Position numbers and translations under genes: made by a program. From assembly GCA_963765245.1 (NCBI GenBank), contig CAVXVP010000020.1:152865-216864 (forward strand): 64,000 bases of DNA, read 5' to 3'. The notes under the pieces were generated by a model. The model saw only the letters and a program-made list of their open reading frames with translations. It had not been told where the DNA came from and did not search any database. The stretch comes from an uncultured Chloroflexia bacterium (GTDB taxonomy: Bacteria; Chloroflexota; Limnocylindria; Limnocylindrales; CSP1-4). Numbering within the stretch: position 1 is the first letter of the stretch; every line of letters starts with the position of its first letter. Shown in pieces: positions 10,533-47,303 of this stretch.

Positions 10533-12134
10533 GTGACTGGTACGGCTCGCGATCGAACGGGCTGCCTCCCGGCATCGAGCTCCGGCGTGAGCCGGTCCCG
10601 GGCGCCGACCGGATCCTGACCCACGACGCGCTGGCGTTCGTGGCCGACCTCCAGCGCCGCTTCGGCCCGCTGCGGCTCGAGCTCCTGCAGCGCCGGAAGG
10701 AGCGCCAGGTCGAGCTCGAATCGGGCGCCCGGCCCGACTTCCTGACGGCGACCCGGGAGGTCCGCGAGGCGGACTGGACCGTCGCCCCGGCACCGCCCGA
10801 CTTCGACGACCGGCGGGTCGAGATCACCGGGCCGGCCGAGCCCAAGATGCTCATCAACGCCCTCAATTCGGGCGCCCGCGTCTTCATGGCCGACCTCGAG
10901 GACTCGCTGTCGCCGACGTGGGCCAACGTCGTCGGCGGCCAGGCGGCGCTCGCAGACGCGGTCCGCCGCACGCTCACGTTCAATTCGCCCGAGGGCAAGG
11001 CGTACCGGCTGAACGACGAGATCGCCACGCTCGTCGTCCGGCCACGCGGCTGGCACCTCGTCGAGTCGGGGATGCTCGTCGACGGCGTGCCGGTCTCGGC
11101 CAGCCTGTTCGACTTCGGGCTGTTCCTGTTCCACAACGGCGCCGAGACCCTGCGGCGGGGGAGCGGGCCGTACCTCTACCTCGCCAAGCTCGAGTCGCAC
11201 CACGAGGCGCGGCTCTGGAACGAGGTCTTCATCCACGGCCAGGTCGCGCTCGGGATCCCACGCGGCTCGATCCGGGCGACCGTCCTGATCGAAACGATCC
11301 TCGCCGCCTTCGAGATGGACGAGATCCTGTACGAGCTGCGCGAACACGCGGCCGGGCTCAACGCCGGGCGCTGGGACTACCTGTTCAGCGGGATCAAGAA
11401 GCTGCGGTCGTGGCCCGAGCTGGCCGTCCCGGATCGGTCACAGCTGACGATGACCGTCCCGTTCATGCGCGCCTACACGGAGCTGCTCGTGCGGACCTGC
11501 CACCGCCGCGGCGCGCACGCGATCGGCGGCATGGCCGCGTTCATCCCGAACCGCCGCGACCCGGCCGTGACCGAGGTCGCGCTGGCCAAGGTCCGCGACG
11601 ACAAGGAGCGCGAGATCCGGCGACGGCTTCGACGGCACGTGGGTGGCTCACCCCGACCTCGTCCCGGTCGCCATGGAGGTCTTCGATCGCGTCCTCGGCG
11701 ACCGGCCGAACCAGAAGGAGCGGCTGCGCGAGGACGTCTCCGTCAGCGCGGCCGAGCTGCTCGACCTGCGCGTGCCCGGCGGCGCGGTCACGGAGGCCGG
11801 GATCCGGGCCAACATCCGGGTCGCGCTGGCCTATCTCGATTCGTGGCTGCGCGGCGTCGGCGCGGCCGCCATCGACAACCTGATGGAGGACGCCGCGACC
11901 GCCGAGATCTCGCGCTCGCAGCTCTGGCACTGGCGGACGCACGGCGTCGCCCTCGCCGACGGGCGCGTGTTCGACGAGGCGCTCTACGCCTCGATCCGGG
12001 ACGAGGAGCTCGCCCGTCTCGGGGGCGCGACGGAAGGTCGCCTGTCCGAGGCGGCCGGCCTGCTCGATCGCCTCGTCCTCGACGACGACTTCGCCGAGTT
12101 CCTGACGCTGCGGGCCTATTCGCTCTTGGAATAG
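10533..12134 (+). CDS. aceB: Malate synthase A (frameshifts near 10545 and 11627)
   Basis: [65 protein letters not shown]. Confidence 0.93.
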
Positions 12135-12146
12135 CGCTGGGGACGC

Positions 12147-12167
12147 GGCCCGATCGTGGCTCGGGCC
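12147..12167. terminator. Possible bidirectional terminator hairpin between convergent aceB and hydantoinase
   Basis: GGCCCGA-N7-TCGGGCC; no strong U tract. Confidence 0.4.
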
Positions 12168-12182
12168 TCCGCCTTCTCGGGT

Positions 12183-12240
12183 TGATGCTTGATTTGGGGC
12201 GCTCGCGTTCGCCTTGATTCGGTATGCCAATGGGCGGCAT
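12183..12240 (+). repeat. Bipartite repeat copy A
   Basis: TGATGCTTGAT (12183-12193) + 30 nt + ATGCCAATGGGCGGCAT (12224-12240). Confidence 0.9.
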
Positions 12241-12259
12241 ATCCGCGGGTGGCGCTCGT

Positions 12260-13664
12260 TCAAGAGCCGACGGCGCCGCGTTCGACGTAGGCCCCGGCGC
12301 CGCGCCGGCCGACGAATTCGCCGTCGCGGATGACCGCCCGTCCCCGGACGAAGACGCCGCGGACCGCGCCGGAGACCTCGAGGCCCTCGTACGGCGTGTA
12401 GTCGCTCGTGTGATGGAGATCGGCGGCGCGGATGGTGCGGTGCGCGGCCGGATCGAACAGGACGACGTCGGCGTCGCGCCCGACCTCGATCGCGCCCTTG
12501 GTCGCCAGGCCGAACCGCCGGGCGGGCGTCGTCGCCAGCAGGTCGACCATCCGCTCGAGCGTGATCCGTCCCTTGGCGACGCCCTCGCTGTAGACGATCG
12601 CGAGGAGCGTCTCGATGCCGGGTGCGCCGTTGCTGATCTGGTCGAACGAGACGCCTGCCCCGGCCTCGGCCTTTTCGACCGCCACCCGATCTGCGACGTG
12701 GTCGGTGGCGACCAGGTCGAGCGATCCGTCGGCCAGCCCTTCCCACAACGCGTCGCGATCGGCGGCGGAGCGCAGCGGCGGCGAGATGACGAAGCAGGCG
12801 CACGAGACCGGATCGGGGTCGTCGTAGCGCTCCTCGGTCAGAACGAGGTAGTGCGGGCAGGTCTCGGCCGAGACGCGAACGCCGGCCGCCTTGGCTCGTC
12901 GGACCTCGTCGAGCGCCGCGGCCGACGAGAGGTGGACGACGTGGACCGGCGCGTCCGCCATCCGCGCGAACGCCAGCGCTCGGGCGGTCGCCACGGCTTC
13001 GACATAGCTCGGTCGCGTCGTCGCGTGGTAGCGAGGCGCGACGTCACCACGCGGCCAACGCAGCGCTGACGGCGGCGTCGAGCAGCACCGGGTCCTCGCA
13101 GTGGACCTGGAGCATCCCGCCGTGGCGGCTCATGACCCCCATCGCGTCGAACAGCCGAGCGTCCGGCAGCCGGAAGTCGAAGACCATGAACGCCTTGGAG
13201 GTCGCCACGCCCGCGTCGATCGTCGCGGGCAGCTCCGCCAGCGGGTCGTCGCAATGCCCGCTGACCGCGAGGCTCAGCCCGACATCGATCGCGGAGTCGC
13301 CGTCGGTGGCGGCGCGCCATTCGCGGACACCGGTCAGCAGCGAGCGCTCGGCCGCGGGCGACGATCCCGTCCCCGGGTTGTTGAACGACAGGAAGGTCGT
13401 GGTGCCGCCGAAGGCCGCTGCCACCGAATCCTGGAAGAACCGATCCGGTTCCGCGTCCGACGCCACGCGCGTGTGCGTATGGACGTCGACGACACCGGGG
13501 AGGACGAGCAGCCCGGTCGCGTCGATCACCTCGTCGGCGCCAGCCGCACGACCACTCAGGTCCGGCTCGATCGCGGTGATCCGCCCGCCATCGATCGCGA
13601 CATCCGCGATCCGCGAGCCACCGGCGGTCACGACCGTCCCGCCGCGAACGACAAGCGCGGTCAT
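12260..13664 (-). CDS. Dihydropyrimidinase/hydantoinase family cyclic amidohydrolase (frameshift near 13050)
   Basis: VRGGTVV, PGVVDVHTH, AAAFGGTT, SKAFM, QVHCED, VVHLS, AETCPHYL, ATDH, NGAPGIE, IEVGRDADVVLFDP. Confidence 0.88.
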
Positions 13665-13698
13665 CCAGTTACCCCGTCACCCACATCACCGCGGCGTT

Positions 13699-13757
13699 AT
13701 GCCGCCTATTGGCATCAAAGAAACGGAACCTCGCCAACTGGCCGAAATCAAGCATCA
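13699..13757 (-). repeat. Bipartite repeat copy B (inverted relative to A)
   Basis: ATGCCGCCTATTGGCAT (13699-13715) + 31 nt + ATCAAGCATCA (13747-13757). Confidence 0.9.
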
Positions 13758-42330: not shown

Positions 42331-42483
42331 CGTGTTCCCTTCCTTTTCCCTCCGTTCTGTCCCGAAGCGGGACAGCAGCTCGACTCATATTCAACTCCAC
42401 CGTACATCACCCAAGAACGGCCAACCGGCCCTCTCTAAGGGTCCTTTGGCCCGCGCCACGCATGCCGCGGATCCGGTCTGGCG

Positions 42484-42541
42484 TGATGCTTGATTTCGGG
42501 CTCCGGCGACCACGTCCGTTCCCTATGCCAATGGGCGGCAT
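42484..42541 (+). repeat. Bipartite repeat copy C
   Basis: TGATGCTTGAT (42484-42494) + 30 nt + ATGCCAATGGGCGGCAT (42525-42541). Confidence 0.9.
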
Positions 42542-42584
42542 AACCTCGGGAGGGTGGGGGTTCCGCGACATGGGCGGGCGCGCG

Positions 42585-42642
42585 ATGCCGCCCATTGGCA
42601 TCAGTTGGCGATGTGCTCGCAGGCGCCTCAGATCAAGCATCA
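42585..42642 (-). repeat. Bipartite repeat copy D (inverted relative to C)
   Basis: ATGCCGCCCATTGGCAT (42585-42601) + 30 nt + ATCAAGCATCA (42632-42642). Confidence 0.9.
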
Positions 42643-42672: not shown

Positions 42673-42711
42673 GTGAACATCTGGTCGAAATAGCCACACG
42701 CGCGGTACACT
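42673..42711 (+). promoter_or_regulatory. Putative LexA (SOS) box overlapping the -35 region of the lhr promoter
   Basis: GTGAACATCTGGTCGA (42673-42688), i.e. GAAC-N4-GGTC; -10 TACACT at 42706-42711. Confidence 0.55.
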
Positions 42712-42721
42712 GTGCGGCCCG

Positions 42722-47303
<4,582 letters not shown>

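Follow-up and report, generated by a model that had tools for sequence, protein, structure and literature searches.

What is the 159-bp inverted repeat that lies between doxX and lhr in the genome of an uncultured Chloroflexia bacterium: a mobile unit, a structured RNA, or a set of sites for a DNA-binding protein? The repeat falls in the window, that is, the whole 64,000-nt stretch of DNA analysed here, which corresponds to C20:152865-216864 of an assembly of 3.88 Mb (69.6% G+C, 38 contigs, 76% complete). The initial annotation had described positions 42484-42642 as an empty inverted doublet of a bipartite, REPIN/MITE-like repeat, and the coordinates and geometry it gave proved exact: two 58-nt arms in inverted orientation enclose 43 nt, for 159 bp overall. 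The arms (42484-42541 and 42585-42642) are 76% complementary according to the repeat finder, and the top strand reads, in order, TGATGCTTGAT, 30 nt, ATGCCAATGGGCGGCAT, 43 nt, ATGCCGCCCATTGGCAT, 30 nt and ATCAAGCATCA. Each arm is a module, composed of the motif m1 (TGATGCTTGAT), a 30-nt linker and the motif m2 (ATGCCAATGGGCGGCAT). In extended form m1 is (T)TGATGCTTGAT(TT), m2 is (T/G)ATGCC-AATGGGC-GGCAT and the linker measures 30-31 nt; the ends of the pair read 5'-TG...CA-3', and a partial m2-like sequence, ATGGGCGG, lies inside the inner segment at 42570-42577. The features of the window are as follows.

12183..12240, plus strand: module A, between the 3' ends of the malate synthase and amidohydrolase genes
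13699..13757, minus strand: module B, upstream of the amidohydrolase gene; an old site
42484..42642, no strand: whole inverted pair (modules C and D with the 43-nt inner segment), 159 bp
42484..42494, plus strand: m1 of module C, TGATGCTTGAT, containing a TGATGC half-site
42495..42524, plus strand: linker of module C, 30 nt, weakly conserved in sequence and fixed in length
42525..42541, plus strand: m2 of module C, ATGCCAATGGGCGGCAT, a pseudo-palindrome ATGCC-N7-GGCAT
42542..42584, no strand: inner segment, 43 nt, with no relation to the inner segments of other pairs
42585..42601, minus strand: m2 of module D, on the inner side of the pair
42602..42631, minus strand: linker of module D, 30 nt
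42632..42642, minus strand: m1 of module D, the outer end of the pair
42673..42711, plus strand: conserved lhr promoter region (lhr start at 42722), intact despite the insertion

The doxX-lhr intergenic region

The pair sits in the middle of the spacer, between a conserved element upstream of doxX and the box and -10 motif of lhr, both of which are undisrupted. On the side of lhr, a gene identified by the domain matches of its product, the box GTGAACATCTGGTCGAAAT (42673-42691) is followed by TACACT (42706-42711), 15 nt apart; in the alignment the box is kept in 7 of 7 genomes, with one or two substitutions in G010 and G058, and TACACT is invariant. The position of TACACT so near to the start codon suggests that the lhr mRNA is leaderless or near-leaderless. 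The box itself resembles the Gram-positive-type LexA (Cheo) box GAAC-N4-GTTC with one mismatch, and overlaps the -35 position. Upstream of doxX, the conserved element (42383-42455; CATTCAA ... GGCCAAsCGGCCC ... AGGsCmTTyGGCC) contains an inverted repeat (42419-42432 / 42438-42451), is common to most aligned relatives and has no match in Rfam; it may act as an operator or as a structured 5' leader. Since the pair disrupts neither conserved element, any effect of it on the expression of lhr or doxX would be optional. Within the pair no sigma-70 promoter or terminator was found, nor, by eye, any match to sigma-54 or IHF sites. A small peptide read outward from m2 (ATGCCGCCCATTGGC, giving MPPIG) was ruled out, because the co-existence of 58- and 59-nt modules breaks the frame.

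A dispersed module family

The exact 11-mer m1 occurs four times in the window (12183 on the plus, 13747 on the minus, 42484 on the plus and 42632 on the minus strand). The same geometry had been proposed for all four copies, A to D; it holds in so far as every 11-mer lies 30-31 nt from a 17-mer, while the linker of copy B, at 31 nt, departs from it. Genome-wide the exact 11-mer was found 23 times, against about 0.2 occurrences expected as estimated from base composition, and a mismatch-tolerant search likewise returned 23 full modules, arranged as 11 inverted pairs and one single module. m1 is on the outside in 11 of 11 pairs. Contig C6 carries sixteen of the 23 modules, in the interval 124-254 kb. 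Outer lengths of the pairs range from 140 to 635 bp, with one further pair of 1575 bp, and the inner segments, of 24, 34, 39, 43, 44, 57, 58, 91, 99, 518 and 1458 nt, are mutually unrelated. The earlier statement that the spacers are dissimilar to each other needs correcting: the linkers have a weak consensus in common, TTTCGGGC..GCGA.CACCTC..TT, and a pairwise identity of about 50%, and are thus not unrelated.

All modules are intergenic or touch just the final bases of a gene, and in three cases the TGA of m1 is the stop codon of the adjoining gene. With genes called by a GC3-based ORF filter and Pfam, the neighbours comprised DoxX, Lhr, malate synthase, amidohydrolase, DUF3830, an MscS-like protein, saccharopine dehydrogenase, EamA, ABC transporters, a response regulator, F420H2 quinone reductase, PucR, DUF1684, nucleoside phosphorylase, UvrD, M20 peptidase, arginase and NrdR, with no common functional theme among them. 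About three loci are divergent, five tandem and three to four convergent, approximately the proportions expected by chance and with no enrichment at promoters, for a small number of loci. The GC skew of C6 and C20 displayed no clear switch that would mark a replication origin or terminus.

A covariance model of the module based on sequence only (R1, built from alignment A2) was then applied to other genomes. It matched in 20 of the 121 genomes of this Limnocylindrales (Chloroflexota) genus, with 1-26 modules each, these genomes being MAGs of 55-95% completeness in which absences are soft. No match was returned from any other genus among the 57 genera of the class sampled, nor from the viral contigs searched. 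The pairing of plus- and minus-strand modules recurs in other genomes, where modules cluster in the region syntenic with C6:105-205 kb of the present one, around a gene for a helix-turn-helix (HTH) protein discussed below. The genome-wide copy count foreseen in the initial annotation thus bears out a multi-copy family, with 23 modules in this genome and 1-26 in each of 19 others.

Gain and loss at orthologous sites

The orthologous spacer of six relatives (G010, G008, G005, G001, G059 and G058), aligned on both sides, lacks the doxX-lhr pair, which is therefore a lineage-specific gain. The reverse situation occurs at C6:153.6 kb, which is empty in the present genome where G010, G012 and G058 have a pair. 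Presence in relatives, as had been anticipated, is variable, and in both directions. A solitary copy fixed across relatives, the pattern that the initial annotation associated with a regulatory site, is not what the genomes contain, given 23 modules whose presence differs at orthologous positions. No target duplication was visible in the comparisons of filled and empty sites, in which divergence of the flanks keeps the junctions from being placed exactly, the nearest relative being about 85% identical in coding DNA. The doxX-lhr spacer of G060, the closest relative, is occupied by another insert, of 1.2 kb (L044, G060:C5, 571-1775), which lacks a module; the spacer thus appears to be a repeated insertion point. 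As a candidate full-length element this insert was ruled out: it carries a different XRE-type HTH gene, an ORF of 266 aa, and no module.

Modules A and B had been taken as the ends of a unit with variable cargo, the hydantoinase (amidohydrolase) gene. This gene is instead a resident, syntenic in 56 of 61 relatives, its matches there extend into the flanking DUF3830 gene with no inversion, and the two modules have separate histories. At the site of B, R1 matched in G058 and G010, and G008 has a palindrome at the same position. At the position of A, G001 and G010 have a palindrome with another core, G073 an m2 with no m1, G058 a remnant and G047 nothing, the full module being confined to the present genome. 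Single modules were, in other words, gained separately. The amidohydrolase gene is bracketed by one site per end both here (12183-13757) and in G010 (C15:144104-145582); in G010 the site downstream of the gene is a palindrome with another type of core, so that the bracketing is kept while the type of site changes.

The HTH gene and its bracket

The 635-bp pair (C6:156927-157561) encloses a small XRE/Cro-CI HTH gene (HTH_31, HTH_3), the gene proper being at C6:157.0-157.5 kb and single-copy. The nearest solved sequence relatives of its product are 434-repressor-like domains. The bracketed gene occupies a syntenic site in nine species (the present one, G111, G070, G060, G010, G067, G012, G058 and G090), with trxB on one side and an ABC transporter gene on the other, its orientation relative to the flanks is identical in 8 of 8 species, and it is vertically inherited. 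It is intact in most bracketed species, the product in G010 being of 112 aa, and frameshifted in the present genome, G012 and G090. In the present assembly the malate synthase (10640-12217 / 11643-12134), the amidohydrolase (12260-12994 / 13044-13664) and the HTH gene each occupy at least two frames; as other genes are split here too, the frameshifts of this genome are likely single-base assembly indels, and its apparent pseudogenes are not to be trusted.

Alignment of the orthologous arms of the HTH bracket from eight species showed m1 to be nearly invariant and the linker to be randomised, with m2 retaining only ATG..T.G.CGGCAT. As the positions of m1 and m2 persist across these species while the linker between them is randomised, the two motifs are held by purifying selection at orthologous copies, and their conservation is not explained by recent copying. 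The ATGCC/GGCAT hairpin, in turn, is dispensable, since it is not part of what the orthologous m2 retains; its stems are broken (ATGAC...GGCAT, ATGTC...GGCAT, ATGCG...GGCAT) with one half still conserved. Between the HTH gene and one arm, short tandem arrays with units of about 19-35 nt and about 2-12 repeats were observed in G058 (L065 5591-6445), G111 (L053 7306-7958), G070 (L055 7791-8581) and G010 (L059 6307-6903). Their units contain m2-like fragments (CCGATTGGC, TGCCAATTG or TGATGCCTGTCTAGGCATCA), which may be extra weak sites.

A genus-wide palindrome with species-specific cores

Of the 121 genomes of the genus, 70 have the HTH gene. Where modules are lacking, it is flanked on each side by one to three inverted 21-bp pseudo-palindromes, TGATGC-N9-GCATCA, and such flanking palindromes were present in most of 12 further genomes devoid of m1 that were scanned at the HTH locus, with none in G087 and G117. 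m2 is the local version of this genus-wide palindrome. The core is (A/C)(C/T)GTGGAC in G008 and G059, CACTCGAGAG in G001, G078 and G080, CACTCGGAT in G016 and GCATGGGCC in G100 and G091, and the same cores recur at many other loci in G059, G008, G078, G106 and G016. HTH-positive genomes gave 8-29 matches per strand to TGATG-N11-CATCA (0 in the reversed control), except for G101, which is HTH-positive, with 2 matches and no palindromes of recurrent core. In HTH-negative genomes only 4-11 matches were found, and among those listed there was no recurrent core; the cores were heterogeneous and, by their look, mostly in coding DNA. Sites and HTH gene thus co-occur across the listed genomes, a test limited by the incompleteness of the MAGs.

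The core is uniform across loci within a genome and differs between species even at one orthologous site, as with m2 cores of CTGTAG(A/G)CGG in G010 and CAATGG(G/A)CGG here. G010 has two core types, but its two HTH copies are closely related to each other, so that a scheme of one protein per core fails. The same genome displays a nested mosaic with a BIME-like organisation (L096, G010:C10:101700-103300, positions 390-1160), in which m1, m2 (core CTGTATGCGG) and two 60-bp tandem units are followed by a 460-bp centre and then by their mirror image; the tandem units each hold a second palindrome type, with core CACTCGAGAG, and the centre has no obvious gene.

Predicted binding sites of one HTH protein

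We consider it moderately probable that the modules are dispersed, bipartite binding sites of the one conserved Cro/CI (XRE) HTH protein, whose gene is the constant companion of the family. Binding, together with whatever effect it has, is what we infer from this association. Dimers of the protein would read the TGATGC half-sites of m2, and a further subunit would read the TGATGC of m1. From the start of m1 to that of m2 the distance is 41-42 bp, or about four helical turns, which would place the two motifs on the same face of the DNA, and bridging of two inverted modules may yield a complex in which the DNA is looped or wrapped. The free sequence of the linker and the loss of hairpin pairing argue that the DNA is recognised in its double-stranded form. 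The random intergenic contexts, the unrelated neighbours and the arrival of sites block by block speak against a classical operator. Several modules, moreover, are at the 3' ends of genes, where a classical operator would have nothing to regulate, and the centres of the half-sites TGATGC and GCATCA are separated by about 15 bp, a wide spacing for a simple Cro/CI dimer. A 159-bp pair is also beyond the reach of point mutation, and a copying mechanism is therefore needed; none was found.

A copying route is what a second reading would supply, one which we hold tentatively and consider on the improbable side: modules and HTH gene would form a second kind of vertically inherited repeat/partner system, similar to REPIN-RAYT, in which sites are copied, re-templated and perhaps architectural. 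The partner would here be a catalysis-free Cro/CI DNA-binding protein, and modules would reach new intergenic sites, possibly by a route based on host repair. The same route would re-template modules in place, as suggested by the m2 core, which switches in concert genome-wide, even at the same orthologous position. Pairs might then be protein-bridged architectural or insulating elements, and not classical operators.

Alternative explanations

That the pair is instead a selfish non-autonomous transposon, with m1 and m2 as the sites of a transposase that mobilises it in trans, appears unlikely to us. The terminal-inverted-repeat geometry with 5'-TG...CA-3' ends, the presence and absence at orthologous sites in both directions, the use of every type of intergenic region and the three m1 motifs whose TGA serves as the stop codon of a neighbour would all be in keeping with such a unit, and one pair of doublets is indeed related in both arms (0.70 and 0.77). 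Replication of the doublet as a unit, as in REPIN-RAYT systems, would however give full-length similarity and paired arms, and the modules show neither: linker identity was 0.50 within pairs and 0.51 between pairs (permutation p = 0.61), and no classes of left and right arms emerged (p = 0.40). Similarity between partner arms was uncorrelated in the present genome, the signal obtained from all genomes being confounded by genome of origin. The existence of single modules with separate gains also speaks against the pair as the unit, as does the persistence of orthologous copies across species with m1 and m2 conserved, although long-term selection for transposability could also yield conserved ends and free linkers.

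The machinery is likewise missing. No PF01797 match, indicative of a Y1/RAYT transposase, was obtained in the present genome (76% complete), while the control was positive in 6 of 14 reference genomes. In no genome does a pair contain a transposase, the enclosed DNA being the HTH gene, resident genes or nothing, and an autonomous transposase element with the same ends was found neither in this and the 120 other genomes of the genus nor in the sampled genomes of the class and the viral contigs, the last of which had no module match at all. There is no serine recombinase in this genome, and tyrosine recombinases are restricted to C8, C24 and C37, none near the clusters. Target duplication is not visible either, with flanks too diverged to fix the junctions. 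The REPIN/MITE-like label is thus supported as regards a multi-copy family of variable presence, and is not supported where it implies a RAYT, a transposase-bearing copy, a visible target duplication or matching arms.

It seems quite improbable that the pair acts as a structured RNA or single-stranded DNA hairpin, in which the two arms would form a long stem that stabilises mRNA as REP sequences do, terminates transcription in both directions or belongs to a small RNA. Folded as RNA, a stretch of 167 nt reached -94.1 kcal/mol (z = -5.2 with respect to shuffled sequences), m2 alone is a 5-bp hairpin here, and several pairs are located at gene 3' ends. This energy is nonetheless a trivial consequence of an inverted repeat. 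The fold and covariation check proposed in the initial annotation did give a strong fold, but RNAalifold applied to the 23 modules found no covarying pair, only the invariant m2 stem, and the linkers of the two arms do not co-vary. The orthologous m2 stem, moreover, is broken with one half conserved, and a linker fixed in length and free in sequence suits a DNA-bound protein. No U-tract or terminator-like site was present in the pair, and Rfam at gathering thresholds returned no match over the whole window.

Site-specific recombination, in which each m2 would be a core site, its short inverted arms flanking an asymmetric spacer of 7-9 bp, and the DNA within a pair would be invertible, is very hard to sustain. 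m2 does combine arms with an asymmetric core, the cores within a genome are uniform, which strand exchange would require, and pairs are inverted without exception. Yet the m2 arms are only 5-6 bp, inner segments of 24-58 nt leave too little DNA for synapsis, no recombinase is encoded in or near the module clusters, and no inversion was seen, the HTH gene having the same orientation in 8 of 8 species and the amidohydrolase matches running on into DUF3830.

Relation to known systems

A close parallel to the predicted HTH sites as a dispersed population is offered by REP and REPIN sequences, which are accompanied by a single-copy RAYT gene (Bertels & Rainey, PMC3116915, PMC3337134; bioRxiv 10.1101/2021.07.10.451892). 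As in those populations, the modules are short palindrome-containing units, mostly in inverted doublets, intergenic and in tens of copies, confined to a single lineage with gains and losses at orthologous sites, and the repeat also flanks their partner gene, which is present in one copy and inherited vertically. The partner differs, a RAYT being a Y1 HUH transposase and the present one a Cro/CI HTH protein of 78-140 aa with no catalytic domain. Unlike REPINs, modules are bipartite with a free linker of 30 nt, the arms of a doublet are not copies of each other, and whole-element sequences are not clustered around a master copy.

Cro/CI (XRE) repressors use multiple operators around their own gene with cooperative looping, the phages lambda and 434 being the paradigm, and the operators of HipB, TATCC-N8-GGATA, have half-sites that are widely spaced, as they are here. 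With such repressors the present protein has in common its HTH_3/HTH_31 domain, similar to that of 434 repressor, and a gene flanked on either side by pseudo-palindromic sites, which often form arrays. Its putative sites depart from Cro/CI operators in that they occur at 10-30 unrelated loci, including gene 3' ends, carry an extra m1 box at a fixed distance of four turns, have an asymmetric and species-specific core, and arrive as blocks of 60-160 bp and not by point mutation.

The BIMEs of Enterobacteria are mosaics of REP types whose orientation alternates and to which host proteins, among them IHF and gyrase, bind. The modules resemble them as nested inverted arrays, exclusively intergenic, that mix palindrome types, an example being C10 of G010 with the order m1, m2 type 1, type 2 x2 ... 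type 2' x2, m2', m1', and differ from them in sequence, in a far lower copy number and in having a dedicated partner gene. MITEs and mobile insertion cassettes, such as Correia elements and MIC231, are likewise small elements with terminal inverted repeats, whose insertions are polymorphic and some of whose copies enclose a gene. In the modules, by contrast, the enclosed genes are residents, the diverged flanks show no visible target duplication, and neither a parent IS nor full-length similarity among copies was found.

Implications

For annotation, the pair lies outside the conserved control regions of lhr and doxX, and the hydantoinase gene between modules A and B should not be regarded as mobile cargo. 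If the HTH protein binds the modules, ready-made sites of one regulator would have spread as blocks and been kept in step over many species. This would provide a handle on how a regulon, or a network bound to the chromosome, may expand without the point-by-point evolution of its sites, and would widen the REPIN-RAYT idea of repeat populations that are long-lived and inherited vertically to a partner without known transposase chemistry.
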